64,000 nucleotides of DNA from an uncultured Verrucomicrobiae bacterium. Its GTDB lineage: Bacteria; Verrucomicrobiota; Verrucomicrobiia; Chthoniobacterales; UBA10450. Where the stretch lies: NCBI GenBank assembly GCA_963726745.1, contig CAVSDR010000004.1, positions 64,001-128,000 of the forward strand. Direction: 5' to 3'. The notes under the pieces are model-generated. The model was not told the DNA's origin and did no database searches. It saw only the letters and a list, made by a program, of their open reading frames with translations. The translations under genes and the position numbers were made by a program. This document shows positions 1 to 61,010 of this stretch, in pieces (the first letter of the stretch is position 1; every line of letters starts with the position of its first letter).

Positions 1-1750
1 GCGGCACGACATCATCATCACCGTCCTCTTCTCGATCATTCTCGTCGGCGGAGTTTTCTGGATCGGTTTCCGCCGCTGGCTGCCGCTCCTCGGGATGGGT
101 TTTTCGCTCCTGCTTTGCTGCCTGGTCGCGCTCGCGGCTGGGCTGCTCATCTTCGGCGAGCTCAACATGGTCACGGTCGGCTTTTGCGCCATCCTCATCG
201 GGCTCGGCGTCGATTTTGCCATCCTGATCTTCGGGCGTTACCAGCAGGCCCGCGACGACGGGCATGATCATCCCACCGCGGTCAGCGAAGCGATCCGCAA
301 CCTCGGGCGCGCCATCTTCTTCGGCGCGCTCACCACCGCGGTTGGCTTCCTCGCATTGCTCTTAAGCAACAGTGGAGGCTTCACGCAACTCGGCGTGCTC
401 ATCGCCATCGGCATCTTTTTAGCCGGCATCTTCATGATGACGGTTTTCTTCCTCTTCCTGCGCGCCAAAGCGCCCGCGCAAAAGCACGATTGGATCTTCA
501 CCCTGGTGAAGCGCTACGTCCGCTGGACCGTGCGGCGGCCGGCGATCATGCTCAGCATTTCCGTGCCCGTGCTTCTGCTCCTGAGCGCGCTGGCCGTTTC
601 CCCGCGGCCGCGCCTGATTTTCGATGCGAGCACGGAATCGATGGAGCCAAAGTCGAGCGCCGCCGGCTACGCCTTGCACACGATCATGGCGAAAATGCCC
701 GCGCGCTGGGAGCCCGCCATCGGGATGGTGCGCGCGGACGATCCGCAGCAGCTCCATGATTACTGGCAGAAACTCTCCGCGCATTGGGCCGAGCTCCAGG
801 CCGCCGGCAAGATCAAAGGCTTCTCCACGCCCGCCGCGCTCGCGCTTTCGCCGGCCCGCCTCGCGCAAAACCGCGCCGCGCTGCATTCGTTAGACTTCAA
901 CCGCATCCGCCAGGCCCTCGAGACTTCCGTCGCTGCTGAAGGCTTCAGCCCGGAGACCTTTGCCAGCGGCTTCACCTTGCTCGAACAGCTCGAGCGCGTG
1001 GCGGAGCCCAGCGCCGCGGTGCCCGATTGGCGCAGCTTGCTGCCTAAATCTTCAAGCTGGTGGTTCCTGGTCGATCGCTACTTCGCGCACGACCCGCGCC
1101 TAACGACCGGTTTCGTGACCACCCACGAGCCAATCAAGACCCAGGCGCAAAAAGAAATGCTCCGGCAAGAACTCCCGGTCCCGGGCGTCCCACTCACTCT
1201 TTCCGGCTGGAGCTTTACCCTCACCGACCTCATCCCGTGGTCGCATCGCCAGCTGCTTTTAATCAGCGCGCTCATGGCCATCTTCGATGCCACCCTGCTG
1301 GCCTTGCTCTATCGCGACTGGCGGCTCTGGGCGATCCAGGTCGCCACCCTCGCGCTCGCCGTCGGCGCGATGATTGCCTCGATGAAGCTGCTCTCGATTC
1401 CGCTCAATTTGCTCAACGTTCTCGCCTTCCGCCTGGTCCTGGCAATCGGCGTCGACTACGGCATCTACGTCCTGCTCGTCTGGCAAAAAGCGCGCCAGTT
1501 GGAGCACGATGTCGCGGGGGTGGTTAAGCCGGTCATCCTCGCCGGGCTGACGGCGATCGTTGGCTTTGGCTCGTTAGGCCTGGCCAATAATCCCACCCTC
1601 GCCGGCCTCGGAGTCGCCTGCGCCATCGGCATTTTCTGGAGCCTCGCGGCCACGGTTTTCTTCACCCTGCCCGCAACCGCTGCGGCCGAACCGAAAGTCT
1701 GGCGCGAAGAAACCGTCACCCCGCCCGTCAAAGCCACACAGCATGTTTAG
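1..1750 (+). CDS. MMPL/RND-family membrane transporter, 5'-truncated by the window edge
   Basis: Frame is open from base 2. Two hydrophobic repeats with GLGVDFAI / AIGVDYGI and ALTTAVGF / GLTAIVGFGSL motifs, separated by a large extracytoplasmic loop. Confidence 0.85.
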   Translation, partial: RHDIIITVLFSIILVGGVFWIGFRRWLPLLGMGFSLLLCCLVALAAGLLIFGELNMVTVGFCAILIGLGVDFAILIFGRYQQARDDGHDHPTAVSEAIRNLGRAIFFGALTTAVGFLALLLSNSGGFTQLGVLIAIGIFLAGIFMMTVFFLFLRAKAPAQKHDWIFTLVKRYVRWTVRRPAIMLSISVPVLLLLSALAVSPRPRLIFDASTESMEPKSSAAGYALHTIMAKMPARWEPAIGMVRADDPQQLHDYWQKLSAHWAELQAAGKIKGFSTPAALALSPARLAQNRAALHSLDFNRIRQALETSVAAEGFSPETFASGFTLLEQLERVAEPSAAVPDWRSLLPKSSSWWFLVDRYFAHDPRLTTGFVTTHEPIKTQAQKEMLRQELPVPGVPLTLSGWSFTLTDLIPWSHRQLLLISALMAIFDATLLALLYRDWRLWAIQVATLALAVGAMIASMKLLSIPLNLLNVLAFRLVLAIGVDYGIYVLLVWQKARQLEHDVAGVVKPVILAGLTAIVGFGSLGLANNPTLAGLGVACAIGIFWSLAATVFFTLPATAAAEPKVWREETVTPPVKATQHV

Positions 1751-2403
1751 AATTCTCCTTTGCCTTTCGCTTCTCCTCCCGTCGCTTCTGCGCGCCGAGG
1801 CGCTCGCGCCGAACGACCTCAAAACGCTCCTCGGCCGCATCCGCGAAAAACGCGCCGCTGCCCCGCAGGTGCAGGCCGATTTCGAGGAAGAGAAGACGCT
1901 TCGGATGATGAATAAGCCCGTGGTCAGCGCGGGCAAAGTTTGGTTCCAGGCGCCGAATAAATTTCGCCGCGAAGTGAAGGGCAACGCGCCCAGCATAACC
2001 GTGAGCGATGGCGCGCAGCTGTGGATTTTCTACCCGAAATTCCAAAGCGCGGAGCACTACTCGTTAGGCCGGCGCGGACCGCTGGATGCCGGGATCGCCG
2101 CGATCACGGCCGCGCTTAACCTTGAGGGCGTGGAGAATAATTACCATCTCGCCGGCGCGCGTGAAGGTGCTGGCTATGTCCTCGAATTAACGCCCAAGCA
2201 CCCTTCGATGAAGCGCATGCTCCAGCGTTTCAGTATTCACCTGAACGACGGTCTTCAGGTCGAGCGCACCGAGATGTTGCAGCCGAACGGCGACCGAATC
2301 GTGACCAAGTACACGCGGCGAATCGCGCGCGCCGATTCCGGCCGACACCTTCGAGTTCACTCCGCCGGCGGGCACGAATGTGACCACGCCACTCGGTCGT
2401 TAG
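1743..2403 (+). CDS. LolA-family outer-membrane lipoprotein carrier (apparent frameshift near 2316)
   Basis: Signal peptide; ADFEEEK..SAGKVWFQAPNKFRRE..VSDG motifs. The typical C-terminus (DTFEFTPPAGTNV..GR, TAG at 2401-2403) lies in another frame. Confidence 0.75.
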
Positions 2404-4412
2404 GGCGCCGGCGTCGCTTCCAGTTCGGCGGCGCGTTTCGCGTGTGCGTCCGCTTCCGCGGCCCGGCCGAGCTCCGGAAGGATGATGGCTAAATTCTTGT
2501 GCGCGGTCAGGTCATCCGGCCGCGTTTGCAGGAGCCGCTCGTATTCCGCGGCCGCTTCCTCGAGCCGCTCGCTCCGCAGATAGCAGAGCGCGAGGTTCAT
2601 CTGCGCCGCGGGAAAATCACGCTGGATGCGCAGGGCCGCCTGGTATTCCGGAATCGCTTCCGCGCAGCGCTCCATGAGCGAAAGCGCGGTCGCGAGATTG
2701 TAATGCGGCTGCGCTTTCTCGGGCGCGAGTTCCGTCGCGCGGCGCAGATAGGTCAGCGCTTCCTGCATCTGTCCCATCACCCCGAGCGTCTGCCCGACGG
2801 TGGCCTGCAACTCGGCGTTTTGGGGATCGAGCTCGAGCGCGCGCTTCCAATGTTCCATCGCCGCCGGCACATCGCGGCGGCGCGCGTAGATGTCGCCTAA
2901 CAACTGCTCCAGGCCGGCATCCCACGGTTCGAGCTGCGCCAGCTTGAGCAGGTGCGCGAGCGCTTCGTCCTCGCGCCCCATTTGCAGCAAGAGCGCAGTC
3001 AGATTCCGCTGCGCGCTGGCCGACTCGGGGTTGGCCGCGAGCGATTTTTCGTAATACGGCAGCGCAGCATACGGCTGCCCCATGCGCGCGAGCGCGTAGC
3101 CGAGGTGGTTGTTCGCCTCCGCGTCCTCTGGCTGGCTCGCGAGGGCCGCGCGGTATTCCGCAACCGCCTCCTCGACGGCGCCGCGCTGGTCGAGCAAGAG
3201 GCCCAGCTGCGCGTGAGCCAGCGCGCTCTGCGGATTGCGCGCCAGTGTCGTTCGCCAAAGCGTTTCCGCGTCGCGGAAGTCGGCGCTGTGCCGCCAGGTG
3301 ACCGCGCCTAACGAGCCCAGGAGCAGCACCGCGACCGCTGGCTGCAGCCACGCGGCTTTGCGCGCGGCAAACAGAGCGATGCCGGCCGCGAGCAGAGCCA
3401 GCGGGCCGATCGCCGCGAGGTATTGCGCGTGATCCGCCGGGGGAACGCCGAGCGCCGGCAACAAAGCCACGCCAAAGAAAAGCAGCGCGGCGGCCACGCT
3501 CCGGCCGGCGGAACGGACACTGATCCACGCGACCAAAACAGCCAGCAAGATGAGCGCGGGCCAAAGGTAAGCCAGCGGCACAGCCGGCCCCGCCGGGTAA
3601 TCGAAAACAAGCGGAAGCGGCCAGGCCAATTTCGCGAGCGACAAACAGAAGGCCCACGAAGCCTGCAGCAGATGCGCCCCGGGATTCGCCGTGAAAAACT
3701 CAAGCAACTGCGCGCTGCTGCGCCACCAGACGCTGGCCGCGGCGAGCAAAAAGAACGGCGCCAGCTGTGCCCAACGCGCCAGCGCCAGCGGCTTCCGTTT
3801 CAACCAGAGAGCCAGCAAAAAAATAGCCGGCAAGATGACGGCCGCGCCGGCGCTCAGCAGCGCGGCCACAAAGAAGACCAGCGCCGCGAGGTAGAACAAG
3901 GCCCGCGCACGCGTGTCTTTCTTGAAAAACCGCGCCCAGCTCCAGAGGGCCGCGAGCGCAAAAAACGTCATGAGCACACGGCCGAGTTGCGCGACCCACG
4001 CGACCGTTTCCACCTGCACCGGGTGAAGCGCGAAGAGCGCCGCCGCGAGCCACGCGCCGGGTATGCGCAGCAATCGGAGCAGCCGCCAAAGCAGGAGCGC
4101 GTTGAGCGCGTGCAAGCCGAGGTTAACCCAATGGTAGCCGGCAGGCTGGACGCTCCAGAGCATCCACTCGAGCCGATAAATGGAGTTCGTCAGCGGGAAA
4201 TAATCCGCCGGCCGCGCAAAGGAACTCCAGATTTGCCGCCAGCCTTCCGCCGCGCTCAGCAGCGGATTTGCGGTCACCCGCAGGTCATCCTGCCAGATGA
4301 AACCGGCGCGCCAAACTTGCTGGTAAACTCCGAGCGTGAGCGCGAGCAGCAAAAGCGCGAGGAGCCACTGCGCCAGCCGCGTCTCGCTGAAGTTCGTTTT
4401 CTCTTCTTCCAC
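2400..4412 (-). CDS. TMTC-like multi-pass membrane protein with C-terminal TPR repeats (putative GT-C O-glycosyltransferase)
   Basis: FIWQDD, YHWVNLGLH and FALHPVQVETVAWV motifs, about 10 TM segments, then roughly 8 TPR units. GTG start at 4412 is inferred. Confidence 0.8.
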   Translation of the reverse strand: MEEEKTNFSETRLAQWLLALLLLALTLGVYQQVWRAGFIWQDDLRVTANPLLSAAEGWRQIWSSFARPADYFPLTNSIYRLEWMLWSVQPAGYHWVNLGLHALNALLLWRLLRLLRIPGAWLAAALFALHPVQVETVAWVAQLGRVLMTFFALAALWSWARFFKKDTRARALFYLAALVFFVAALLSAGAAVILPAIFLLALWLKRKPLALARWAQLAPFFLLAAASVWWRSSAQLLEFFTANPGAHLLQASWAFCLSLAKLAWPLPLVFDYPAGPAVPLAYLWPALILLAVLVAWISVRSAGRSVAAALLFFGVALLPALGVPPADHAQYLAAIGPLALLAAGIALFAARKAAWLQPAVAVLLLGSLGAVTWRHSADFRDAETLWRTTLARNPQSALAHAQLGLLLDQRGAVEEAVAEYRAALASQPEDAEANNHLGYALARMGQPYAALPYYEKSLAANPESASAQRNLTALLLQMGREDEALAHLLKLAQLEPWDAGLEQLLGDIYARRRDVPAAMEHWKRALELDPQNAELQATVGQTLGVMGQMQEALTYLRRATELAPEKAQPHYNLATALSLMERCAEAIPEYQAALRIQRDFPAAQMNLALCYLRSERLEEAAAEYERLLQTRPDDLTAHKNLAIILPELGRAAEADAHAKRAAELEATPAP

Positions 4413-4494
4413 AGACCTGCCGAGTTTTCGCGGATTCGCCCGGAGCGCAACAGACTTGTTTCCCCGCGCGAGGCCGCTAGCGTCCCGGACCGCG

Positions 4495-7400
4495 ATGCCG
4501 ATCCGACCTGCTCCTCTCGCCGCCTGCGCGCTTCTTCTTTCCACTCTTTTCGGCTTCGGCCAAATCACCACCACCCCTCGCCAGGGCCTGCGCGAGAATG
4601 ATCCACGCGTCCACGCCCTAACGAATGCGCGTGTGGTCACCGCGCCCGGGAAAGTCATCGAAAAGGGCACCGTCCTGATCCGCGATGGCTTGATCGTCGA
4701 GGCCGGGCCGGCAGTGAAAATCCCACCGGAAGCGCGCGTCTGGGATCTTGCTGGCAAAACGATTTACCCGGGCTTCATCGATTCCTACAGCCGCCTCGGT
4801 TTGCCCGAGACGCTTCAGCCGGAACCCATCCGCCGCCCGGATTCGGACCCCGATAATCCGGACGCGAAGCCGAAGGAAATTCCGCGCGAAGGCGTGAAAG
4901 GGACGCACGCCTGGAACCCGCGGGTCACGCCGGAGCGGAACGCGTCCGAGTTTCTCCGCCCCGATAAGAAAGGCGCGCAGAAGTTGCGCGACCTTGGTTT
5001 TACCAGCGCGCTGGTGGTGCCCGCGCGGGGCGTTTTTCGCGGCGCGAGCACGCTGGTCGATCTCGACGACGCGGAAGTCAATGCGACCGTGGTCGCGCCG
5101 CAGGTGGCGCAGCACATCGCTTTCGAGATCGAGCGCCGGCGCGATGGCGGCGGCTACCCGAGCTCCCTCATGGGCTGCATCGCGCTCATCCGCCAGACCC
5201 TGCTCGATGCCGGCTGGTATGCGGCGGCGCAGGAGGCGTATCGGAAAAATCCCGGAGCGAGTGAGCGGCCGGAAAACAACGCCAGCCTCGCGGCCCTCAC
5301 TGAGTGGACGCAGCGGAAACAACCGGCGGTCTTCGAAGCGGAGGATGAACAGGACGCCCTCCGCGCCTTGAAAATAGCCGACGAGTTCAAGGTCAAACCG
5401 ATCCTGCTCGGCAACGGCTACGAATACCGGGTGCGGAACTCGTTAGGCAAAACACCCGTCATCCTCACGCTCGATTTCCCGAAGACGCCCGAGATCGAGA
5501 AGCCGGAGCTGGCGCTCGAGTATCAACTCGACGAGCTGCAGCATTGGGATCGTGCCGCGAGCAATCCCGCGCTCCTCGCCGCCGCCGGCCACCCGATCGC
5601 TTTCACCACTGCGAAGCTCGAGAAGCCGGAGAAGGAATTCTGGTCGCGCGTGCGGCTCGCGGTGCGCCGCGGCTTGAGCAAAGAGAATGCGCTCGCCGCG
5701 CTCACCAGCGCGCCGGCGGAGATGTTCGGCGTGTCCGATCGCCTGGGCACGATCGCGCCCGGTCGCCTGGCGAATCTCGTGGTCACGAGCGGCGATCTCT
5801 TTGCCGAGAATGATGCGCGCGTTCTCAGCACCTGGGTCGACGGACGCTGGTATGAGACCGAGCGCGCGAACGAGCGCGACCCGCGCGGCACGTGGAACGT
5901 CACCCTCGGCGACAAGTCTGTGCCACTGGTGATCGAAGGCGAACAGGACAAGCTCGAGGCCAAGCTGGCCGACCAGAAAGTTTCGTTCTTCACCAAGGAC
6001 GGCGCCGTCCTCCTGATCGCGCCGGCGAAGATTTTCGAGAAAGGCGACGGTTCCTTGCGCCTTTCCGGTCGGCTGGTAGACGACAAGATCGACGGCGCGG
6101 ATGAGCTTCCCTGGAGCGCGCAACGCACCGCCCAATATGCCGGCAAAAAGAAAGACGAGAAACCCTCGCCGCTCGACCAGCCGCTCGATTTTCCCGAGAC
6201 CTTCCCTGCCGGCGCCTACGGCCGAACCGCGCCGCCCGCACAGCCTGCGGTCTTCATCCATGGCGCGACCGTCTGGACCGTCGGCCCGCAGGGCACTTTG
6301 CAAAACGCCGACCTCCTGGTGAGCGGAGGGAAAATCACCGCGGTCGGCCCGGGCTTGAAAGCCCCCGCGGGCGCCACCGTGATCGAGGGCCAGGGCGTGC
6401 ACGTGACGCCGGGAATCATCGATTGCCATTCGCACACCGCGATCAGCCGTGGAGTGAATGAAGGAACGCACGCGGTCACCTGCGAAGTGCGCGTGGGCGA
6501 TGTGGTCGATGCGACCGACATTGCGATTTACCGCGAGCTCGCCGGCGGGACGACGACGGCGAATTTGCTCCACGGCTCGGCCAACCCGATTGGCGGCCAG
6601 AACCAAGTGGTCAAGTTCCGCTGGGGCGCGCTCCCGGAGGAGTTGAAATTCGAGGGCGCGATGCCGGGCGTGAAATTCGCCCTGGGCGAAAACGTGAAGC
6701 AATCGAACTGGGGCGAGCGGAACACCACTCGTTATCCGCAAACGCGCATGGGTGTGGAAGAGCTCATCCGCGACCGCTTCCGCGCGGCCCAGGAATACGA
6801 CGCGGAAGCGAAACGCAAAGGCCCCCTGCCCTTCCGCCGCGACCTGCAGCTCGAGGCGTTATCGGAAATCGTGAACAACAAGCGGCTCATTCATTGCCAT
6901 TCCTACCGGCAGGATGAAGTGCTCGCGCTCCTGCGCGTCACCGGCGAATTCAAGATCCAGGTCGGCACTCTCCAGCACATCCTCGAGGGCTACAAAGTAG
7001 CCGACGAGATCAAGGCCGCGGGTATCGGCGCCTCGACCTTTGCCGATTGGTGGGGCTACAAGGTCGAGGCCTTCGACGCCATCCCTTACAACGCCCCGAT
7101 GATGGTCAGCCGCGGCGTTTTGACGACGGTAAACTCCGACAGCCCCGACCTCGCGCGCCGGCTCAACACCGAGGCCGGGAAGTCGATGAAATATGGCGGC
7201 CTGCCCGCGGAGGAAGCGCTCAAGCTGGTCACGATCAACGCCGCCAAACAGCTCCGGATCGACGCGAAAGTCGGCTCGCTCGAGGTGGGCAAGGACGCAG
7301 ACTTTGTCCTCTGGAGTGACAATCCGCTGTCTAATTACGCGCACGCCAACCAGACCTGGATCGAGGGCCGGAAATACTTCGATCGCGCGGAGGACCTCGA

Positions 7401-7614
7401 GTCGCGCAAAGCCTACGCCGCGCAGCGCGAGGCGCTGGTGCAAAAGGCGCTGGCGGAACGCGTGAAGGAAATCGGCAAACCGAAGGAGAACGGCGAGGAG
7501 AAAAAAGGCAGCGAAAAGACGCCGCCCCCTTCGCCGGAAGACTGGGAGCGCGCGCATGAACTCGTCGGCTCCTACGGCGACGGGAGCGATCGCTATTCCT
7601 GCCATCACGAATAA
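4495..7614 (+). CDS. Secreted two-domain amidohydrolase
   Basis: Signal peptide; two amidohydrolase domains (PGFIDSYS degenerate; PGIIDCHSH intact); GSLEVGKDADFVLW. Confidence 0.85.
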   Translation: MPIRPAPLAACALLLSTLFGFGQITTTPRQGLRENDPRVHALTNARVVTAPGKVIEKGTVLIRDGLIVEAGPAVKIPPEARVWDLAGKTIYPGFIDSYSRLGLPETLQPEPIRRPDSDPDNPDAKPKEIPREGVKGTHAWNPRVTPERNASEFLRPDKKGAQKLRDLGFTSALVVPARGVFRGASTLVDLDDAEVNATVVAPQVAQHIAFEIERRRDGGGYPSSLMGCIALIRQTLLDAGWYAAAQEAYRKNPGASERPENNASLAALTEWTQRKQPAVFEAEDEQDALRALKIADEFKVKPILLGNGYEYRVRNSLGKTPVILTLDFPKTPEIEKPELALEYQLDELQHWDRAASNPALLAAAGHPIAFTTAKLEKPEKEFWSRVRLAVRRGLSKENALAALTSAPAEMFGVSDRLGTIAPGRLANLVVTSGDLFAENDARVLSTWVDGRWYETERANERDPRGTWNVTLGDKSVPLVIEGEQDKLEAKLADQKVSFFTKDGAVLLIAPAKIFEKGDGSLRLSGRLVDDKIDGADELPWSAQRTAQYAGKKKDEKPSPLDQPLDFPETFPAGAYGRTAPPAQPAVFIHGATVWTVGPQGTLQNADLLVSGGKITAVGPGLKAPAGATVIEGQGVHVTPGIIDCHSHTAISRGVNEGTHAVTCEVRVGDVVDATDIAIYRELAGGTTTANLLHGSANPIGGQNQVVKFRWGALPEELKFEGAMPGVKFALGENVKQSNWGERNTTRYPQTRMGVEELIRDRFRAAQEYDAEAKRKGPLPFRRDLQLEALSEIVNNKRLIHCHSYRQDEVLALLRVTGEFKIQVGTLQHILEGYKVADEIKAAGIGASTFADWWGYKVEAFDAIPYNAPMMVSRGVLTTVNSDSPDLARRLNTEAGKSMKYGGLPAEEALKLVTINAAKQLRIDAKVGSLEVGKDADFVLWSDNPLSNYAHANQTWIEGRKYFDRAEDLESRKAYAAQREALVQKALAERVKEIGKPKENGEEKKGSEKTPPPSPEDWERAHELVGSYGDGSDRYSCHHE

Positions 7615-8912: not shown

Positions 8913-8918
8913 GCCGCG

Positions 8919-10408: not shown

Positions 10409-10411
10409 CTT

Positions 10412-11795: not shown

Positions 11796-11806
11796 AAGTT
11801 GGTTTT

Positions 11807-13159: not shown

Positions 13160-13278
13160 CGGGGAGACGAGGTCCGTTGGCAGGATTAGCGAAGAAGCGC
13201 GGACAAGGCCAGCACGGTCTTTGCCGGCGGCGATTCTCTTGCAGCTTGTCGAGCGGCCGGATGCAAAGAGGTTACCCG

Positions 13279-14258: not shown

Positions 14259-14266
14259 CTCGCTGC

Positions 14267-45190: not shown

Positions 45191-45192
45191 AT

Positions 45193-46528: not shown

Positions 46529-46753
46529 CTATTCCGCCAGGTCGGCCACCGGCGCGCGGCGGCCGGAGCGCTGCGAGGACCAGCAGCCTAACGACCAGCA
46601 AATGGCGGCGACGACGAGATTGAAGACGACGAGAAGCGTGGCCACCACGGGGTCGTCCTCGCGCAGGAGGAGTTCCTTGAGCGCATTGGAAATGGCGTAG
46701 AGCGCCACCAGCAAAAGCAGCAGCCGCACAGCGAGGATGAGGGCGTGTTTCAT
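46529..46753 (-). CDS. Small two-TM protein, PgaD/IcaD-like by position
   Basis: 74 aa, two hydrophobic segments, ATGA overlap with the upstream GT2 gene. Confidence 0.6.
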
Positions 46754-50514: not shown

Positions 50515-50672
50515 CGAGGAGCAGTAGTGTAGAGACAGGGCGCTGGTGTTCAAATCGCGCCGCCCGGGCCAGGCGGAGGTCAAAAAAAAGGCTCCCTTCA
50601 CACTCCCCACTTCCTCTCTAAGCTCTCGTTAGGCCAAGTGCTCGCGGCGCCCCCGGGCCCTCAGGAAAACGA

Positions 50673-51617: not shown

Positions 51618-53800
51618 GGCTTCGTTTTGCCTTCCGTTGCCGGCTCCCCAGCGACCTCGTATTCCGGCTTGGCCGCGCCCAGGAGCCAGCGGTCGAACCA
51701 GCCGACGAGATGCTGCAAGCGCTCGACCCGGTGCCACGGCTGGCCCGCGCGCGAAAGCTCGTGCGTCTCATTCGGGAACTTCACCATCACCGTCGGAATC
51801 TTGCGATATTTCAGCGCGCGGAACATCTCCTCGCCGCCCGCCGTCATCGGCGTGCGCGTATCGGTTTCGCCAAGGATCAGCATGAGCGGCGTCTTCACGT
51901 TCTGGATGTAGGTGATCGGCGACCGCGCCTTGAAATCTTCCTCCTGCTCAAACGGCGGCCCCTTGAACCAACTCGGCTGGAAAAGCGTGAAATCCGCGGT
52001 GTACCACCAATTCGCCCAGTCGGCGATGTCGCGCTGCGAGACCGCAGCCGCGAAGCGATCCGTGTGCGTAATCACCCAGTTAGTCAGCAAGCCGCCGCCG
52101 CTCCCGCCAGTCACGCCGAGCTTCTTCTCGTCCACGTAACCGCGCTTGATCACTTCGTCGACGCCCGCCATCAGGTCCTTGAAATCGTCGCCTGGATACT
52201 TGTGCTGGATGATGTTCCCGAACTCCTGGCCGTAGCTCGTGCTTCCGCGCGGATTGGGATAGAGCACGATGTAACCTTTCGCCGCCATCCACTGGAACTC
52301 GTGGTCGAAGACAAAACCGTAGGCCGCGTGCGGGCCGCCGTGGATGTTCAGGATAAGCGGATATTTCCGCTTCGCGTCAAAGCCCGGCGGCTTTTGCAGC
52401 CACGCCTGGATTTTTCGGCCATCGAAACTCTCATACCAGACTTCCTCCGGCTCGGTCAGGTTGAGCTGGCTAAAGAGCGCGCGATTGACGTCGGTGAGCT
52501 GACGCAAGCCCGCGCCTTCGACCACGAAAAGATCGCCGATGCGCGTGGGCGTGGAGACGAGCACGAGCAGCTTTCCGGCATCCGCGCTTGTGCGAAAACG
52601 GCCCACCGCCTGGTCGCCTTTCGTGATCTCGGTCAAGGCGCCGCTGGCGGCGTCGAAGCGGCCGAGATTGGTCCGGCCTGCACGCGAGAAAAGGTGAAAG
52701 ATGCTCTTCCCGTCGGCGCTCCAGACCGGCGGATTATCTCCGCCCGCGCGCGGCGCGCCGTTGTCGCCAAAGACGCCGCTCGCGACATCGAAGTCGAACT
52801 CAGCGGTCAGGTTGCGCGGCTGCGCGTTGGGCTTCAACTCCAGCGTCCAAAGATCCGGCTGGGTGTAGGAATTCACCGGCTGATTGGCGGAACCGACGAA
52901 GGCGATCTGCGTTCCGTCCGGACTGAGCGCCGGGTCTTGCATCCCGAGCTCCACCGTCGTTAGGCGCGTCGGCTCGCCGCCACTCGCGGGCACGGAATAG
53001 AGTTCGGTCTTCGGCAGTTCGTAGTAGGGCTCGTCCACCCGGCGGGTGGTGAAGAAAAGCTGCGCGCCGTCCCGTGACCAGAAGGGATCCTCCTCGGAAA
53101 AACGGCCCGTGGTGAGCTGTTTTGGCAGCACTTTGTCGCCCGGGTTTTGCGGCACCGCGACCGTCCAAAGGTGATCCGGGTGCTTGAAGTCGAGATAGCC
53201 TTCGTTATTCGAACGATAGACCGCGCGCGTGATCACATGCACGTCGCTCTCGCGCTCTTTCGCGTCGGCCTTGGCCGCGCCGGGTTTCTTCTCGTCTTCC
53301 TGCTGCTTCTGCCTGGCCAGGTCTTCCGGATTGGTCGAGCTGCTGAATGCGATCGTCTTGCCATCCGGCGACCAGCGCGGGTTGCTCGCGCCTTTCGGGA
53401 GCGAGGTGAACGGCCAGGCCTCCCCGCCGGCGGCGAGCGGGAGGAGGAAAAGCTGGCCCGGCTCCGGTTTCCCCTCTTTCTCGCCACCGCGCACGAAGAC
53501 GAGCTGCTTCCCATCGGGCGACCAGCGCGGGGAACTGTCGCGCGTGCCACTCGTTAGGCGGCGCGGCTCGGCGCCCCCGGCGGTCGGCACCAGCCAGAGC
53601 GAAGTGTCGTAACCCTCTTTCTTTTCATTCACGCTCACGCGCACGAAGACCGCCGCGCTTCCATCCGGCGAAAGCTGCGGATCGCCGATCCAGACAAAAT
53701 CGAAGAGATCCTTCTCGGTGACCGCGCGTTTCTCGGCCGCGACCAGGGAGGAAGCGAAACCCGCGAGACCAAGAGCCAGCAACTTGAGGGACAGACGCAT
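51614..53800 (-). CDS. S9-family peptidase (acylaminoacyl-peptidase-like)
   Basis: Signal peptide, propeller repeats, IHGGPH, NPRGS, GGSGGG, ETHELSR. Confidence 0.92.
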   Translation of the reverse strand: MRLSLKLLALGLAGFASSLVAAEKRAVTEKDLFDFVWIGDPQLSPDGSAAVFVRVSVNEKKEGYDTSLWLVPTAGGAEPRRLTSGTRDSSPRWSPDGKQLVFVRGGEKEGKPEPGQLFLLPLAAGGEAWPFTSLPKGASNPRWSPDGKTIAFSSSTNPEDLARQKQQEDEKKPGAAKADAKERESDVHVITRAVYRSNNEGYLDFKHPDHLWTVAVPQNPGDKVLPKQLTTGRFSEEDPFWSRDGAQLFFTTRRVDEPYYELPKTELYSVPASGGEPTRLTTVELGMQDPALSPDGTQIAFVGSANQPVNSYTQPDLWTLELKPNAQPRNLTAEFDFDVASGVFGDNGAPRAGGDNPPVWSADGKSIFHLFSRAGRTNLGRFDAASGALTEITKGDQAVGRFRTSADAGKLLVLVSTPTRIGDLFVVEGAGLRQLTDVNRALFSQLNLTEPEEVWYESFDGRKIQAWLQKPPGFDAKRKYPLILNIHGGPHAAYGFVFDHEFQWMAAKGYIVLYPNPRGSTSYGQEFGNIIQHKYPGDDFKDLMAGVDEVIKRGYVDEKKLGVTGGSGGGLLTNWVITHTDRFAAAVSQRDIADWANWWYTADFTLFQPSWFKGPPFEQEEDFKARSPITYIQNVKTPLMLILGETDTRTPMTAGGEEMFRALKYRKIPTVMVKFPNETHELSRAGQPWHRVERLQHLVGWFDRWLLGAAKPEYEVAGEPATEGKTKP

Positions 53801-53866
53801 CGCGAAACGTGGCACCATGCCCACGCGGTGCAATCCGCCACTGCCTCGAAACACGAATCCCCTTCT

Positions 53867-54349
53867 GTGCGCGCGCTCCTGCTTTGCTTTTGCCTCTTCG
53901 CCAGTCCGGTCCTGGCCACGCCCACGGTCTACCTCGTGCGCCACGCGGAGAAAGCGCCGAACGATCCGAAGGATCCCGACCTGTCCGACGCCGGCCGGAA
54001 GCGCGCGCAAAATTTAGCCAGCACTTTGAAGGACGCCGGCCTCACCGCGATCTACGCCACCGAGTTGAAACGCACGCAACAAACTGCCGAGCCGCTGGCG
54101 CGCGCCACCGGCCTGCAGGTCACCATCGTCCCCGCCGCCGAGACCGCCGCGCTGGTCGCGCAATTGCAGGAAGCGAAAGGAGCGGTGCTCGTCGTGGGTC
54201 ATTCGAACACGCTCCCGGCGATCGTAAAAGCGCTCGGCGCCTTCGCGCCAATTACCCTCGATGACGCTGCCTACGACGATCTCTTCATTGTCACCGCGGG
54301 CGCGCCGGCCTCGCTCCTGCACCTCCATCTGCCAGCGGCCCACGATTGA
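53867..54349 (+). CDS. Secreted histidine-phosphatase-family protein
   Basis: LVRHAEK, RTQQTA, VGHSNT. Confidence 0.87.
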   Translation: MRALLLCFCLFASPVLATPTVYLVRHAEKAPNDPKDPDLSDAGRKRAQNLASTLKDAGLTAIYATELKRTQQTAEPLARATGLQVTIVPAAETAALVAQLQEAKGAVLVVGHSNTLPAIVKALGAFAPITLDDAAYDDLFIVTAGAPASLLHLHLPAAHD

Positions 54350-54407
54350 CACCGCCGCTGTCCTGTCGTTAGGCTAGCACCCGTTTTAAAATCCGAGACT
54401 TCCGCTT

Positions 54408-55262
54408 ATGAGACCCATCTGGAAAGGCAGCATCAGCTTCGGCTTGGTTTACATCCCCATCTCGGTTTATCCCGCGACGCGTGAAGAGAAGCTTAGCTTC
54501 CGCCAACTGCGCGCGGCCGACCTCAGCCCGATCAAATACAAAAAGGTCGCGGAGGTGGATCAAAAGGAAGTCCCTGCGGCCGAGATCGTGAAAGGTTACG
54601 AGTATGAGCGCGGGCAATTCGTCGTCCTGAAGGAGGAAGATTTCGCGAAGGTGAAGATCGAGTCGACCCATTCCATCGACATCACCGACTTCGTGGAAGT
54701 GGAGCAGGTCGACCCGAAATATTTCTACAAGCCTTACTTCCTCGAGCCGCAAAAGGGCGGAGAAAAAGCCTACGCGCTGCTGCACAAAGCGCTCGCCGGC
54801 ACCGGTAAGATCGGCATCGCCAAGGTCGTGATCAGCGGCCGCGAGCACCTCGCTTCGGTCAAGCCGGATGGGCTGTTCCTTGTGCTCGAGTTGATGCATT
54901 TCGCCTCGGAAATTCTCGCGCCGGATGAACTCAACAAGCCGACGACGGCGATCTCGGACAAGGAATTGAAGATGGCGCAAACGTTAATCGACAGCATGTC
55001 GAGCGACTGGGAGCCGGAGAAGTATCGCGATGAATATCGCACCGCGGTCATGGAGATGATCGAGCAGAAGGCGCAGCATAAAGAGATCACCGCCAAACCC
55101 GATGCGCCGGTCCGGGCGACCAACGTGGTCGACCTGGTCAAGGTCTTGCAGGAGAGCCTGGCGCGAAACCAATCGCTCAAGCCGAAACGCGCCAGCGGTG
55201 CCCGGAGCGGCGGGCGCTCAACCGCCACCTTGGTGAAACAAAAGCGGCGTGTTGCTGCCTAA
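54408..55262 (+). CDS. ku: NHEJ DNA end-binding protein Ku
   Basis: WKGSISFGLV.IP, IVKGYEY, PYFLEP, YRDEY, NVVDL; basic C-terminal tail. Confidence 0.95.
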   Translation: MRPIWKGSISFGLVYIPISVYPATREEKLSFRQLRAADLSPIKYKKVAEVDQKEVPAAEIVKGYEYERGQFVVLKEEDFAKVKIESTHSIDITDFVEVEQVDPKYFYKPYFLEPQKGGEKAYALLHKALAGTGKIGIAKVVISGREHLASVKPDGLFLVLELMHFASEILAPDELNKPTTAISDKELKMAQTLIDSMSSDWEPEKYRDEYRTAVMEMIEQKAQHKEITAKPDAPVRATNVVDLVKVLQESLARNQSLKPKRASGARSGGRSTATLVKQKRRVAA

Positions 55263-55963
55263 CGAGCGAGCCGCGCGATTAATTCCTGCGCAAAGCGCGG
55301 GCCGACGCCGCTCTCCTCGTGCTTGAAGTAAATGTAAGCGTCCGACCACCCGGCGGCGTGCGCGCGGATTACCTCGGCCCAACGATCCATGTCCGCCGCG
55401 ACATAGTCCTCCCGGCGCAGTCGCAGGTAGCCGAAATTAGCCGTCGCGATGTCCGGCGTGCTGAGCTTCTCGCTCTCGGCCAGGCAGAGCGCGGCGTTCT
55501 TCCCCCGGAGCAGCGAGAAAACTTCGTCGCAGAGCCAGCTCGCTTCGCGGAACTCGAAGGCGCAGCGCAGGCCCTCCGGTAGATCGGCCAGGAAGGCCTC
55601 CAGCACCGCGGCGTCCTTCTTAAACGTGGGCGGCAATTGGAAGAGCACACAGCCGAGTTTCTTCTCCAGGTCGCAGATGACCCCGTGGAAAAAACGCAGC
55701 GTCTCGCCGCAATCGCGCAACTTTTGCCAGTGGGTCACGCGCTGCGGCGCCTTCAGGCTGAAGCGAAAATTCTCCGGCGTGCCCTTCCACCAGCCGTCGA
55801 TCGTCTTCGCGCTCGGGATGCGCCGAAAGCTGTAATTGATCTCGGTGCTCGTTAGGCGTTCGCTGTAAAAGCGGAGCATCTTGGCCGCCGCAAGATCTTC
55901 CGGGTAGAAAGTCCCCTTCCATTCCGCATACTGAAATCCAGAAGTGCCAATCCAAAGATTCAT
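55259..55963 (-). CDS. DUF72-domain protein
   Basis: IGTSGFQY..W.G.FYP, EINYSF, FQLPP, FEFR, YLRLR. Confidence 0.9.
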   Translation of the reverse strand: MNLWIGTSGFQYAEWKGTFYPEDLAAAKMLRFYSERLTSTEINYSFRRIPSAKTIDGWWKGTPENFRFSLKAPQRVTHWQKLRDCGETLRFFHGVICDLEKKLGCVLFQLPPTFKKDAAVLEAFLADLPEGLRCAFEFREASWLCDEVFSLLRGKNAALCLAESEKLSTPDIATANFGYLRLRREDYVAADMDRWAEVIRAHAAGWSDAYIYFKHEESGVGPRFAQELIARLAR

Positions 55964-56023
55964 CCGAGAACGCTCCGCGCGGCCACATCCTGCCGTCTGT
56001 TTTCGCGGAAGACCAGCGCGCGC

Positions 56024-56842
56024 ATGAAGTTTGAGATCGTGCCCGCGGCTGAGGTCGCGCTCGCGCAACAGGCCCAGCTCGCGAATGCTGCCTTTGCCGA
56101 TTACATCGGCGGCTGGCATCCGCTGGACGCGGTCGCGCTCGCGGAGTTTCTCGCCCGGCAAGGCGCCGATCTTTTCCTGAGCCGGCTCGTGCGGGCCCAT
56201 GGCGAACTCCTGGGTCTGTGCTACCTCAACCGCACCGGCCGCATCCTGCGCTGCGGCGGGATGGCGCTGGTGCCGGCAGCGCGTGGGAGCGGCGCGGGCG
56301 ACGCGCTTTTCGCAGCCGTTCTCTCCGACGCGCAAACGGCCGGCGACGAAGCGCTCCTGCTGGAAGTGATCGAACAAAACCCGCGCGCGCATGCCTTCTA
56401 CCGGCGGCATGGATTCCGGAATCTGGGCCGGCTGGGCGGTTGGCGGCGCGCCGCGGGCCCGGTCGAAGCGCCGGCAGAAATCACGGAAATTTCCGTCGCC
56501 AAAGCGCTGTCTGTTTACGACCCGCGCGAATATCCGGAAGCGCCCTGGCCAATCTCGCGCGGCGCGATTGCAAAGGTCGCCGGGACCCGAGCCTTCCAAG
56601 CGGACGGCGGCGTGGTGATTCTTTCCAAGCCCGAGATCCATCCCGTGCGCGTGCATGGACTCTTCGCCCGCGGCGCCCGCATCGGTCTCCGGACGTTGCT
56701 CGCGGGCGCACTGGCGCGTTTCCCGGAGCGCGAGTTTTTCGTTCCGCCGGTCTGGCCGGAGGGAGATGGCGCGACGATCTTCGAGCCGCTCGGATTCGTG
56801 CGCGAGCCGCTCTCGCAGTTCTTCCTCCGGCGCGATCTCTAG
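56024..56842 (+). CDS. GNAT-family acetyltransferase
   Basis: VPAARGSGAG and LEVIEQNPRAHAFYRRHGF. Confidence 0.85.
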   Translation: MKFEIVPAAEVALAQQAQLANAAFADYIGGWHPLDAVALAEFLARQGADLFLSRLVRAHGELLGLCYLNRTGRILRCGGMALVPAARGSGAGDALFAAVLSDAQTAGDEALLLEVIEQNPRAHAFYRRHGFRNLGRLGGWRRAAGPVEAPAEITEISVAKALSVYDPREYPEAPWPISRGAIAKVAGTRAFQADGGVVILSKPEIHPVRVHGLFARGARIGLRTLLAGALARFPEREFFVPPVWPEGDGATIFEPLGFVREPLSQFFLRRDL

Positions 56843-56844
56843 CC

Positions 56845-57546
56845 ATGCCCAACCACTACGCCACGCTGGGCCTGGAACGCGACTGCACGCTCGCAGAGGT
56901 GCGCGAAGCCTACCGCCGCCTGGTCAAGGAGCATCACCCCGACCGCCACGCGCAGGCGCCGGAAGCAGTCCGGCGGGCGCAGGAATTGAACGCTGCGCAT
57001 GAGGTCCTGAGCGACCCGACGCGCCGCCGTGTCTACGATCGCGAGCAGGGCGGCGGCCGCACGCCGCGCGCCGGCCGCATCTCCCACGATCTCGCGCAGG
57101 ATGTGAACCTGCGGCTGGAAGATTTTTTCCGCGGGACGGCGCTGACGGTGACGGTGCGCGACCCGCTGAGCCGCGAGCCGGAAACCTACCCGGTGGAGAT
57201 TCCGCCCATGACTGCGCCCGGGACGCGCCTGCGCCTCGCGAGAAATTCCGGCGAAGGCCACCTGCGGCTGCGCTTGCGCGCCATGCCTTCGGCGCGGTTC
57301 AAGCCGCGCGGAAGCGATCTCCGCTGCGACCTGCGGATCGACGCGCGCCGCGCGGCCGCGGGCGGAAGCGAGACGATCACCGGCGCGGACGGCCGGAGGT
57401 TGACCGTGCGCATCCCGGCGCAGGCCGGCCGCGGCGAGATGGTGCGTTTGCCTAACGAAGGGTTGCCGCGGGCGCGCGGCGGACGAGGCGACTTGCTGGT
57501 GAAAATAACCTACCGGGTCGAGGTGCAGGTGCGCCGCGCTCGTTAG
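56845..57546 (+). CDS. DnaJ-class (CbpA-like) J-domain protein
   Basis: HYATLG..AYRRL..HPD; C-terminal DnaJ domain (GRGDLLV); no zinc finger. Confidence 0.88.
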   Translation: MPNHYATLGLERDCTLAEVREAYRRLVKEHHPDRHAQAPEAVRRAQELNAAHEVLSDPTRRRVYDREQGGGRTPRAGRISHDLAQDVNLRLEDFFRGTALTVTVRDPLSREPETYPVEIPPMTAPGTRLRLARNSGEGHLRLRLRAMPSARFKPRGSDLRCDLRIDARRAAAGGSETITGADGRRLTVRIPAQAGRGEMVRLPNEGLPRARGGRGDLLVKITYRVEVQVRRAR

Positions 57547-58070
57547 GGCCGGAGCGCGCTGGTGAAGCGGACCAGCTCCGCCGCGACCTGGTCAATGCGC
57601 TGTTGGATTTGCGCGTCCTGGACGGTGTCGCCGTCGAAGGCGCTCTCGTTTGCGTAGACAAAACGCGGGATGATGACGCTGCGAAAATCGAGCATGAGCG
57701 AGTTCGCATAGGCCATGACGGACATGTAGCTGCTCATGCCGCCGGCGGCGCAAAGGAAGCCCACGACCTTGTCGGTCCACGCTTTCCCGGTGAGCTCGAT
57801 CATGTTTTTAGCCGACGCGCTCACATCGTAGTTATAGACCGGCGCGGCCACCAGAATACCGTCGGCCCGGGCGATCACGGCACTGAGTTTTTGGGCGCCG
57901 GGCGCGGCGTAACACGCCCCGGCATCGCAGAGCGGCAGGTCAAGCTCCCGCAGGTCGATCCACTCCGGCGCGACGCCCAGTTTCTCGAGCGCGGCCAAGG
58001 CGCTCCGGCCGAGGCGGCGGCTGTTGCTCGCGGGATTCCCGCTCGTGCTCACGACAAGGTATTTCGGCAT
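57543..58070 (-). CDS. NADPH-dependent FMN reductase
   Basis: SGNPASNSRRL, APVYN...SAKN, K.VGFLCAAGG. Confidence 0.88.
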   Translation of the reverse strand: MPKYLVVSTSGNPASNSRRLGRSALAALEKLGVAPEWIDLRELDLPLCDAGACYAAPGAQKLSAVIARADGILVAAPVYNYDVSASAKNMIELTGKAWTDKVVGFLCAAGGMSSYMSVMAYANSLMLDFRSVIIPRFVYANESAFDGDTVQDAQIQQRIDQVAAELVRFTSALRP

Positions 58071-58114
58071 AACGACGCGGCGAAATTAGCCGACAACTTC
58101 ACCGCTGGCTACTT

Positions 58115-59206
58115 TCAGCCGAGGTCGAAATCGGCCCAGAGGAGGGCGTGATCGCTCGCGGCATTGGTCTCGCCCGTGACCGTGGGCAGGGGCGGATATT
58201 TCTCCCGCACTTTCTTCGTCTTCGACCAAATGCCGCGCCGCTCGATCCCGACCCCGCGCAGGCGCGGCCAAAGCGCGTCGGAGACCAGGAGGTAATCGAT
58301 CTGGTCGTTTTTGCTCGGGATGGCGTCGTCGCGATAAGTCCAGCGATCCGCGTCCGCAGGGAGTTTGTCGAAGGTGTTGCGCAAGCCGGGATGCCGCAGG
58401 AGCGGCGCGAGCGATTCGTTCTTGGGCAGTTCGTTGAAGTCGCCCGCGACCACGACCCACTGCCGCTTCAGGTCGAAGCGGCGCAGGATTTCGCGCACGC
58501 GCTCCGCCTGCCGGAGACGCCGGGCATCGTTGCTCGCCTGCGAGCCGTAGCCGCGGCTCTTAAAGTGGTTCACCAGGACCCAAAGGCTGCGCGTGCCCGG
58601 CACATCGAGCTGGAATTGCGCGCAATCGCGGCTGAAAACCGGCCGCTTCGTCTCGCTGTCTAAATCGTCCACATGGCTCTGCATGTCGCCAATCGGGCAG
58701 CGCGAGAGCAGGCCCACGTCGATCCCGCGGTCGTCGTTCCCGTCGATCACCATCGCGTGCGCGAAGGGCGCCGGCTGGAGCAGGGTGTCGTTAAATTCGC
58801 GCAGCACCGGGCGGCTCTCCACCTCGACGCAGCAAAGGACATCCGGGTCCACCGCGCGGATGATGCGACCGGTGTTTTCAATCGCGGCCGCGCTGACCAC
58901 GCAACGGCGCCACTCGATCCACCCGATCCAATCGGCCCGCCCATCGGCCACGATCTTGCCCGTGCTCGTGGCCAGCCGGCCACGCGTTTGCTGGAGGAAA
59001 AAGGGCCCGTAGTTCCCGAGCGCGCGGTGTTTCTTCAGGAGCGCGAGGATGCGCTGCTTGTCCGCGGCGGTGTAGACCGGCTGCTCGATCAGGCGATGGA
59101 GCGCGGCCGCATCCGCGAGGATCTCCGCGTTCTTCACCTGGTCGGGGCCGGCCATGGCTTTGATCCGGCTGAAGAGGTTCTCGACATTGTAGGTGGCGAT
59201 GCGCAT
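58115..59206 (-). CDS. Endonuclease/exonuclease/phosphatase-family protein
   Basis: ATYNVENLF, VEVE, GNDDRGIDVG, NHFKS, GDFNE, IDYLL, SDH. Confidence 0.9.
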   Translation of the reverse strand: MRIATYNVENLFSRIKAMAGPDQVKNAEILADAAALHRLIEQPVYTAADKQRILALLKKHRALGNYGPFFLQQTRGRLATSTGKIVADGRADWIGWIEWRRCVVSAAAIENTGRIIRAVDPDVLCCVEVESRPVLREFNDTLLQPAPFAHAMVIDGNDDRGIDVGLLSRCPIGDMQSHVDDLDSETKRPVFSRDCAQFQLDVPGTRSLWVLVNHFKSRGYGSQASNDARRLRQAERVREILRRFDLKRQWVVVAGDFNELPKNESLAPLLRHPGLRNTFDKLPADADRWTYRDDAIPSKNDQIDYLLVSDALWPRLRGVGIERRGIWSKTKKVREKYPPLPTVTGETNAASDHALLWADFDLG

Positions 59207-59237
59207 GGCGTTTCCTGCGAATAGATTTCGCGACTCG

Positions 59238-61010
59238 TTAGGCGTGGATCCAGAAAGCGCTGTCGGCAAATTGCTCGCCGCGCCACCACTCGCGCGGCAC
59301 CGCGCGGCGGCAGAAGTTGACTGAGCCGGCCTGGCTTTGCAGCGGGGCGAGCACTTCGCCCGCGGAGTCGCGTTTCGCGCGAAACTCCGGCGTCTCCGGG
59401 ACGACCGCGACGATGTGGCCAGATTTCCCGTCGAGTTTACGGCGCGCGACGATCAGGCCCACGCCGCCGAGGTTGGCCGCTTCCTGGAGCTTTGTCAGCG
59501 TGCCCGTCTGCCGCCAGCCGAAGCGCAGCCCGAAGTCGCGCAACCAGCGGAAGAGGTCGTTTGCGCGCTGTTCATCGATCGTTTTTTCGTAGAGCGGCGG
59601 GACTTCCTCGCCTTTAGCCAGCAACTCGACCGCGCCCGGCGTCCACCAAACGCGCGGGAGGTAGACCCCGGCGAGGTGGCAATAATCGTGCGCGTAGATG
59701 TTGCAGAAAGTGCAGCCGCCGGCGGGCTGGTAACGCCGGTGCGCCGGCTGCTCGACCGCCAGCCAGTCGATGATCGCCGCCAGCTCGGCGGTGCGTTCGG
59801 CCGCGCTTTCCCCGGCGCGGCCGGGTTGCCCTGGCTCGTTCAGCGAATGCGGGCCGGCGCAATCGACCCGCCGGGTCACGCTCCCCGGCGCGCGCGGCAT
59901 GTAGACCGCGACCAGGCCGGAGGTCGGCTCGACCGTCTGCGGCTGGGCCACGGGAATCTGCGGCTCGCACGGCACGGGCGGCCGCGTCTTCGGCTTGCGC
60001 GGCTTTTTCCCCGCGGGCCGGGCCGGCTGGGCGCGTTTCACCCGGCGGAGGTATTTGGCAAAGGCCCAGCCGCGGAAGTAGGCGCCGTTCAAGCTCGTCT
60101 CCACCTCCAGGAAACCGCCGGATTTCTTCGCGGAAAGCCGCTGCACGAGATGGCCGGCGGGCAAGCACGCAAGGACATTCGCGACCTCATCCTCCTTCGG
60201 AATCGAAGGATCGCGCCGCAACCGGAGCGCGTTGCTGGCCTTCACCTCGTAGACCGGGCGGACGCAGGGGAAGAGCGTGGGCGCGGCCAACGGTGCCACC
60301 CCAGCCGCCGGCGCGACCGCAGCCACCACTTCGCCCACCAGTCCGATCCCCTGCGAAATCCGGAGGTATTCGTGGATGTTCTCGCCGTAAAAGCGGCCGT
60401 CGGACTCATGGCCTTGCTTGAAGCCACGGCTCGGGCTGCAGCTGCCCTTGTTGTAGGCGATGGCTACGAAAACTTGCTCGCTGTCGGTTAACGTTCGCCG
60501 ATCGGACCAGCCCTGCCGCGCCAGAGCTTGCTTGAGCTCGAGCAACAGGAGGTCGAGGCAAGGCTCGAAACGCTGCCAGCATTTTCCGAGGAACCACTCG
60601 GGATTCTCCCGGAAGAACTGAAGATCGTACTGAAAAATCCCGAATCCGTGGCAGAACTTTCCGGGGTTGCGCAAGGCAAAGCCGTAACCTGGGACTACGC
60701 GTGCGAGGTCCAGCAGCGCCTCCCGCGCGATCGCAAACATTTCCGGCCCGCGCGGCGCGGAGAGCAGGTCGGATTTGGTTCGCGGGAAGGCGCAGCGGCC
60801 TTTGTCGGCATCCAGCGTATCGCCCACGCAAAGCCGGAGGACGTCGGCTTCGCCGAGGCCCTTGGCGACCAGCGGACTCCAGATGTAGCAGGTCTCCTGG
60901 GTGGCGATGGCCGCCACGAGATCGACGCTGAACGGCGTCGAAGCGACAGCCGCCGCGGCTCGGCGGCCGAAAGTGGTCTTGAACCAGGCGATCGCGTCAC
61001 GGGTGGTCAT
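59238..61010 (-). CDS. Putative peptidoglycan hydrolase: lysozyme-like + SH3-like + CHAP/NlpC-like domains
   Basis: AIATQET, GFGIFQ and AYNKG (GH23/SLT-like); LRLRRDP..GWAFAKYL (SH3b-like); TFCNIYAHD..GHIVAV (Cys/His). Confidence 0.65.
   Translation of the reverse strand: MTTRDAIAWFKTTFGRRAAAAVASTPFSVDLVAAIATQETCYIWSPLVAKGLGEADVLRLCVGDTLDADKGRCAFPRTKSDLLSAPRGPEMFAIAREALLDLARVVPGYGFALRNPGKFCHGFGIFQYDLQFFRENPEWFLGKCWQRFEPCLDLLLLELKQALARQGWSDRRTLTDSEQVFVAIAYNKGSCSPSRGFKQGHESDGRFYGENIHEYLRISQGIGLVGEVVAAVAPAAGVAPLAAPTLFPCVRPVYEVKASNALRLRRDPSIPKEDEVANVLACLPAGHLVQRLSAKKSGGFLEVETSLNGAYFRGWAFAKYLRRVKRAQPARPAGKKPRKPKTRPPVPCEPQIPVAQPQTVEPTSGLVAVYMPRAPGSVTRRVDCAGPHSLNEPGQPGRAGESAAERTAELAAIIDWLAVEQPAHRRYQPAGGCTFCNIYAHDYCHLAGVYLPRVWWTPGAVELLAKGEEVPPLYEKTIDEQRANDLFRWLRDFGLRFGWRQTGTLTKLQEAANLGGVGLIVARRKLDGKSGHIVAVVPETPEFRAKRDSAGEVLAPLQSQAGSVNFCRRAVPREWWRGEQFADSAFWIHA

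Follow-up and report, generated by a model that had tools for sequence, protein, structure and literature searches.

The genome of an uncultured Chthoniobacterales bacterium (Verrucomicrobiota; G000, 3.41 Mb in 7 contigs, C1 to C7) is subject to a force at the DNA level that writes short asymmetric words by substitution and keeps them, blind to strand and reading frame. The first of these words, M1 (TCGTTAGNC, heptamer TCGTTAG), was noticed in a 64-kb stretch of this genome (C4:64001-128000, hereafter the window), and its signature is real and genome-wide. G000 carries 2,025 TCGTTAG (991 forward and 1,034 reverse) against the 194 expected from a third-order Markov model, and 1,755 copies of the full M1 against 32 expected from a masked model. 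The sites permitted by protein sequence are near saturation, for each word separately. A second word, M2 (WTAGNCRRCNNNWTS), a third, M3 (AAGATCGACA), and the stacking of words in a single genome are new here. As a tentative explanation, to which we give somewhat less than an even chance, the words may be driven by sequence-biased DNA uptake and recombination, in the manner of the DNA uptake sequences (DUS) and of the USS (uptake signal sequences). Within the portions of the literature surveyed, sequence-specific uptake tags are described for the Neisseriaceae and Pasteurellaceae only. The phenomenon would be extended by a comparable signature in a family of uncultured soil Verrucomicrobia, where its strength suffices to reshape codons, stop codons and tripeptides.

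A word written into genes in every frame

An earlier reading of the window, made from the sequence only, had listed 49 copies of TCGTTAG or its complement CTAACGA, every one of which is exact. With one further copy at 4618 on the minus strand, the window holds 50, 25 on each strand, while dinucleotide shuffles of the window gave 3.19 on average and 10 at the most. The same reading extended 38 of its 49 copies to an octamer; on recounting, 39 of the 50 reach TCGTTAGG. By our own approximate gene caller (2,962 genes genome-wide), 43 copies are within genes, 5 are intergenic and 2 lie on stop codons. The copies at 50626 and 54366, previously taken to lie between genes, do so by these calls as well, and the SucC motif VVRLEG (45317) and the GltA motif YYSLGI (42883) are encoded across the word as had been described. 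The features of the window discussed in this study are as follows.

887..59241, 25 plus and 25 minus: M1, TCGTTAGNC, 50 dispersed heptamers, usually followed by GC and with a weak WSSAC upstream
419..63939, 18 plus and 20 minus: M2, WTAGNCRRCNNNWTS, 38 dispersed copies, overlooked by the sequence-only reading
4618..4624, minus: intergenic M1 copy, likewise overlooked
42883..42889, minus: M1 inside the citrate synthase gene (42719-43846), encoding Ser-Leu-Gly
45317..45323, minus: M1 inside the SucC gene (45193-46380), encoding Val-Arg via a rare AGG codon
50626..50632, plus: intergenic M1 copy
54366..54372, plus: intergenic copy of M1, upstream of the Ku gene at 54408-55262
59235..59241, plus: M1 over the TAA stop codon of a minus-strand gene (59238-61010)

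The enrichment is not confined to the window, as all seven contigs carry TCGTTAG at 0.45-0.70 per kb, nor does it follow from codon usage: genes contain 1,585 copies, compared with 104-145 after each of 10 within-gene shuffles of synonymous codons. The heptamer is about as dense in genes (0.55 per kb) as between them (0.62 per kb), and all six frames are used (sense 673/179/124, antisense 311/298, plus 180 TAA stops), with 124 TAG and 180 TAA stop codons lying within M1. The effect on coding is striking in the tripeptides that the word can encode. Ser-Leu-Gly is written with the TCG-TTA word in 491 of 767 cases (64%), while Ser-Leu pairs without a following Gly use TCG-TTA in just 24 of 3,277, and 183 of 245 Pro-Asn-Glu tripeptides are encoded by the reverse word. 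Both tripeptides are themselves over-represented, Pro-Asn-Glu ranking third (245 vs 97 expected) and Ser-Leu-Gly fourth (767 vs 465).

M1 consists of a strict core with graded flanks. Positions 1 and 3-6 are strict, and their single-base neighbours are mostly near or below expectation. The tolerated changes are C to T at position 2 (10-fold enriched), G to T at position 7 (3-fold) and C to G or T at position 9 (5-7-fold); position 8 accepts any base, G being present in 75%. Upstream there is a weak WSSAC preference and no long consensus, and the stringency varies from genus to genus. The word is thin in genes with less than 0.7 G+C at third codon positions (0.13 per kb, vs 0.52 per kb in typical genes), and its largest gap is a polysaccharide island of 58% GC; the depletion in foreign DNA for which the sequence-only reading had proposed to look is thus seen in foreign-looking genes. 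One M1 was found in the ~8 kb that we take, by sequence motifs, to encode RNA polymerase subunits and EF-Tu (C4:298,117-305,133 and 319,345-320,529), a hint that the word is opposed by high expression.

M2 occurs in G000 as 1,641 copies against 21 expected (masked model), of which 1,289 are coding, compared with 37-64 after synonymous shuffles, and is a graded 15-base pattern. The genome has 167 sites that are both M1 and M2. At 21 places M2 forms back-to-back palindromic dimers with a short, mostly A/T centre, including at least one perfect hairpin. Each word shuns its own copies at short range in G000, and not the other word: the density of M1-M1 pairs at 20-100 bp is 0.29 and that of M2-M2 pairs 0.63-0.76 up to 300 bp, whereas M1-M2 pairs (0.9-1.4) resemble control words (1.0-1.4). 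Occupancy points in the same direction. The word is used at 16 of 48 Ser-Leu-Gly and Pro-Asn-(Glu/Asp) sites within 100 bp of another M1, vs ~69% at 0.3-2 kb, and a nearby M2 has no effect. The even spacing of M1 is not general, as the word-dense relative G079 has clusters and tandem copies, with 19 of its 67 close pairs on opposite strands, and a small 57-kb sample of G013 gave no self-avoidance. M1, M2 and M3 behave independently.

Distribution and turnover of the words

Within Verrucomicrobiota, M1 is limited to one family. It exceeds its reversed control in 142 of 150 family genomes, five of which are unpublished, by more than 5-fold in 44 and more than 10-fold in 28, but falls below that control in every one of the 109 genomes that represent the order's 15 other families examined; CGTTAGGC exceeded its control in none of 249 non-family Verrucomicrobiota genomes (at most 72 copies). 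The densest genome is G079, with 1.57 heptamers per kb in 200 kb. M2 is far more restricted: of 151 genomes it is high in two, G000 (1,641 vs 41 for the control) and G036 (677 vs 45), with a weak signal in G015 (119 vs 46). G036 belongs to another genus and is unpublished, and the occurrence of M2 across genera rests on it. M3 came from a de novo search of G063. Its reversed control contains CTAG and is near zero everywhere, and M3 was therefore judged against other genomes; at least 500 copies are present in 37 of the 150 family genomes (one unpublished), and 22 in G000. Words can be stacked, since M1 and M3 occur together in all four genomes of one genus (g39), among them G056 with 2,191 M1 and 4,653 M3. 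In G053 we found none of the three words, and de novo searches revealed no replacement word in 80 kb of this genome or in six same-genus genomes (16-80 kb each).

The same word appeared in another phylum. The two megaplasmids of the cultured Gemmatirosa kalamazoonensis KBS708 (Gemmatimonadota) carry 778 and 701 copies of CGTTAGGC against 20 and 19 for the controls, a density of 0.7 per kb, and the base before CG is free in this version. Ten other non-family genomes scanned alongside had CGTTAGGC at background; high-GC metagenome contigs also carry it. Clustered CATCCTGTC repeats on plasmid 1 of G. kalamazoonensis (L458:5741-42987) are apparently a small repeat family and not a dispersed word. 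Viral sequences were scanned with a narrow pattern of close pairs, which picked out 34 contigs, three of them with at least four copies (up to 0.59 per kb, 44-49% GC). These had no protein match to G000; word-rich phages outside so narrow a pattern may still exist. In the literature on uptake sequences, over-represented motifs, competence in Verrucomicrobia and Chthoniobacterales, and Gemmatimonads (open-access mainly), we found no report of these words.

Alignments with relatives indicate how the sites arise. They are mostly colinear and typically 1-6 substitutions apart, and about one M1 site in eight overlaps an alignment gap. Two family relatives and a short-read contig (~90% identity) retain the citrate synthase site (42883..42889), whereas an outgroup has synonymous codons and not the word; the SucC site (45317..45323) is kept in one of two family relatives and is absent from three outgroups. 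One weak holder (share 0.09), obtained by a search of sequencing runs, was used for site conservation only. At ~75% identity, the sharing of M1 sites with two close relatives and six genomes of the same genus (22 of 72) was not above that of control words (30 of 95). With the word-dense G079 it rose to 18 of 44, compared with 10 of 64 for control words; it was 3 of 41 with G063, and was nil with four word-poor genomes, including the unpublished G036 (0 of 67; control words 10 of 75). Sites thus turn over, and last only where the force acts. The conservation in orthologues that the sequence-only reading had proposed to test is found in relatives, at sites built in place by point substitution. 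None of the three outcomes that this reading had named as refuting its proposal occurred: the counts lie far above codon-preserving shuffles, every contig carries the word, and relatives, a short-read contig among them, retain the sites. For M2, 2 of 177 sites were shared with relatives.

Integron ends and the search for a reader

The core of integron att sites is written GTTRRRY. In the family, attI reads CTC|GTTAG in 23 of 25 readable cases (30 loci examined), and attC ends are TCTCGTTAG with a purine and then a pyrimidine behind it. Other families have a putative attI without TC, five of six attC ends are TCGTTAGGC, and their genomes are word-free. G000 itself retains an array at C6:736,500-745,300 (L249) with attI and at least 14 attC with partner arms and no adjoining integrase. 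This array is an integron remnant; single attC are present at C4:150,943 and C3:633,150, and intI survives as a fragment only (C2:58,609), a profile search of G000 having yielded nothing IntI-like beyond XerC, XerD and this fragment. All 14 attC with a partner arm contain TCGTTAG. Seven of them end in AT, and all seven genomic copies of TCGTTAGAT are those ends; the other attC arm, TGGTTAGGC, has 23 copies in G000 and is not enriched. A pattern search identified 15 family-type attC among the 2,025 TCGTTAG copies, and Rfam reported nothing but a tRNA in the array region. Plasmid 1 of G. kalamazoonensis encodes IntI and carries at least 18 attC ends, 17 of 18 with TCGTTAG; its array (L460, ~845-857 kb) lies on the 3-prime side of intI, while family integrons lie upstream of intI.

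M1 thus equals the crossover end of the family attC and attI and of the attC of G. kalamazoonensis. One word in two phyla that is the attC end of both is hard to ascribe to chance, and implies either a transferred reader or a shared target. The dispersed copies nevertheless differ from integron sites: they are single boxes without partner arm or hairpin, made in place by substitution, require C at position 9 and last in the absence of an intact intI.

To look for proteins that may read the words, we scanned 176 G000 proteins against family libraries. The sequence-only reading had advised a search for competence genes, and G000 has ComEC (three domains), DprA, pilin and type II secretion-like clusters, and ~16 pilin-like genes. 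None of the candidate readers or writers followed the words. IntI passed the cut-off in 88 of 151 family genomes, in word-free G053 and also in 44 of the 109 outsiders, which are word-free. The search did not find it in G079 (91% complete), the densest genome, and its association with the words is weak. XerC and XerD follow the species tree and have the same helices whatever the word. Type IB topoisomerase (C4:185,188 in G000) is present in word-free G053, in 37 of 109 outsiders and in each of 11 family genomes, and was not found in G036. An orphan N6/N4 methylase occurs in all 11 sampled family genomes, but the M3-type G063 has it too, as do 14 of the 109 genomes that are word-free. The sole C5 methylase is in a degraded island at a contig end (L120:12448-19286), where it is followed by degraded fragments resembling a restriction-type island. 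A small winged-helix pair is phylum-wide by Atlas clusters and does not track the words, and neither do the two-member paralogue families among those listed.

No pilin among those compared in three genomes was seen to track the words, nor were two paralogous minor-pilin cassettes. The three-gene cassette (L121:11579-14134; L112:6384-8937) is located by prs, near dprA, and its type differs in two relatives (one unpublished); the second cassette of G000 (L297-L302), ~30% identical, is near xerD. No dif site made of M1 or M2 arms was found in G000. A canonical XerD-type arm at C5:28,939 (minus) may be dif, and the FtsK-orienting polar sequences (KOPS) do not converge there.

Possible uptake drive and its alternatives

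The uptake explanation, our tentative preference, supposes that the words are tags favoured by a sequence-specific DNA-binding reader in genetic exchange, as DUS and USS are. A receptor on the uptake route would bind the word; donor fragments with the word would replace word-less alleles more often than the reverse, and such biased replacement would spread the word without benefit to each gene (molecular drive). Each word would have its own reader, and readers would be gained, lost and transferred as modules. Given the match to attC ends, the M1 reader was perhaps first tuned to cassette-bearing environmental DNA. The receptor of DUS is ComP. The accessible text of PMC2817400 states that USS and DUS roughly double the tripeptides they encode, that of PMC3630211 describes DUS dialects as congruent with phylogeny, with a shared core and inverted terminator pairs, and that of PMC12616744 predicts PpdA/ComN as the receptor for USS.

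At the DNA level, the DUS/USS-like signature proposed by the sequence-only reading holds for density, lack of skew, tripeptide bias, point-mutational origin and foreign-DNA depletion. Like DUS and USS, the words are non-palindromic 9-10-mers present about once per 1-2 kb on both strands and in genes in all frames, with tripeptides roughly doubled, a thin presence in foreign genes, lineage-specific variants, and competence genes in the host. Unlike them, they occur in another phylum and are other words, of which a single genome has up to two unrelated ones and the family has three; one of them is also found in Gemmatimonadota, and inverted terminator pairs are scarce. As the terminator pairs and the feature of one dialect per lineage fail, we do not class the words as members of DUS/USS, and propose the role in uptake from sequence comparison. 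The idea of a self-recognition signal needs qualification, as the word recurs in another phylum and unrelated words are stacked in single genomes.

Several observations weigh against uptake drive. There is no core common to the words, which are stacked within one genome and recur in another phylum. M1 and M2 do not relieve each other, though either should suffice for entry via one pilus, and opposite-strand M1 pairs at 20-50 bp number 2 in G000 vs 14 expected. ComEC does not follow word density, being present in 144 of 151 family genomes at any density and intact in word-free G053. No receptor emerged: of the pilins compared (30 loci out of 41 hits, in 3 genomes), none was restricted to the two genomes rich in M2. 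Finally, the ComEA-like frame is broken in the G000 assembly, in which other genes are also split by apparent indels.

If uptake drive is correct, two rules for uptake tags would be broken, namely that a lineage has a single word and that words are private to kin. Through its match to attC ends, M1 ties the question to how integrons obtain their cassettes; in Vibrio, transformation feeds the capture of integron cassettes, according to the accessible part of PMC12614218. It is attractive to speculate, although we consider it rather unlikely, that soil bacteria of two phyla share transferable, modular and stackable readers, that one of these, for the attC end, makes the cells preferentially capture environmental DNA with cassettes, and that this bias has also driven the word thousands of times into the bacteria's own genes. 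Three patchy words over 150 genomes provide a ready phylogenetic profile for a reader hunt, and the cultured G. kalamazoonensis KBS708 carries the word, making uptake drive and an intracellular reader directly testable against each other.

Such an intracellular reader is the most serious alternative, a possible one that we nonetheless judge doubtful. The words would be boxes for tyrosine-recombinase-type proteins, whether IntI or a relative so far unrecognised, or for some other chromosomal reader, selected or driven in the cell for protection of its own DNA, chromosome handling or recombination. The crossover boxes described above (attI 23 of 25, own attC 14 of 14, Gemmatirosa attC 17 of 18) are consistent with this alternative, and a mobile reader would account for one word in two phyla. 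The ratio of M1 to control has a median of 3.2 in genomes with IntI vs 2.0 in those without, where kin are not independent and completeness confounds. M2 at positions 1-2 and 6-9 (WT...CRRC) fits, save the first G, the IntI1 attG hot-spot pattern GWT...CRGM as given in section 33 of 10.1101/2022.09.11.507474, and M3 matches the XerC arm of Caulobacter dif, as listed in Table 1 of PMC2731167, over its first 9 bases, but both likenesses are short and were found post hoc. The occurrence of IntI speaks against such a reader, as G000 has a fragment only, G079 apparently none, and word-free genomes have it, and so do XerC/XerD, with helices indifferent to the word, and the topoisomerase, present without the words and missed in G036. 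TCGTTAGAT, the most frequent of G000's own attC ends, has 7 genomic copies, none of them outside the array. Moreover, thousands of integrase targets in core genes should presumably be counter-selected.

A methylation-directed repair ratchet, as the accessible text of PMC4390886 proposes for the highly iterated palindrome HIP1 (GCGATCGC), would write a word without any benefiting reader. Like HIP1, the words are hyper-abundant and written into genes in a lineage with an orphan methylase; MutS and MutL motifs are present in G000, and the scarcity of single-base neighbours at the strict M1 positions would also fit. Nevertheless, the words are non-palindromic with graded flanks, M1 having no palindromic core and M2 being a 15-base pattern unlike a methylase site. 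The methylase, here a candidate only, is found in word-free and M3-type genomes too, and the fall of occupancy near another M1 is not what a ratchet acting site by site predicts. We regard this explanation as improbable, and the HIP1-like reading of M1 as weak.

A replication-polarised signal like Chi or KOPS is refuted. M1 resembles these in being short, non-palindromic and over-represented, but it has no replichore polarity: 873 and 852 copies lie on the two skew-defined strands, compared with 250 and 71 for the KOPS control. The G-rich strand has 50.6% of M1 and 51.1% of M2, vs 78% of GGGNAGGG on the same segments. No skew was detected for M1 in 50-kb bins of G000, nor for CGTTAGGC on the Gemmatirosa plasmids (404/374 and 335/366). 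The lack of strand polarity supposed by the sequence-only reading is thus borne out. An artefact of base calling or assembly is likewise refuted, as is a by-product of the usage of amino acids and codons, despite the genes split by apparent indels in the G000 assembly, since the word occurs in many independent genomes, short-read contigs and a finished isolate record, the same sites recur in orthologues and codon shuffles remove it, as the argument made earlier against miscalled bases had anticipated.

We also noted some features of the assembly and gene content. The PEP (phosphoenolpyruvate) carboxylase gene of the window (39971-42330) is split, probably by assembly indels, as are those for exonuclease VII large subunit (L118:16733-18084), S-adenosylhomocysteine hydrolase (L120:10900-12334) and the ComEA-like protein (L108:8128-8439). 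Near-identical genes (97-100%) at C1:7,181-12,131 and C6:1,029,563-1,034,576 are probably an assembly overlap. G000 has two Ku paralogues, 58% identical, one in the window (54408-55262) and the other at C7:135,505.

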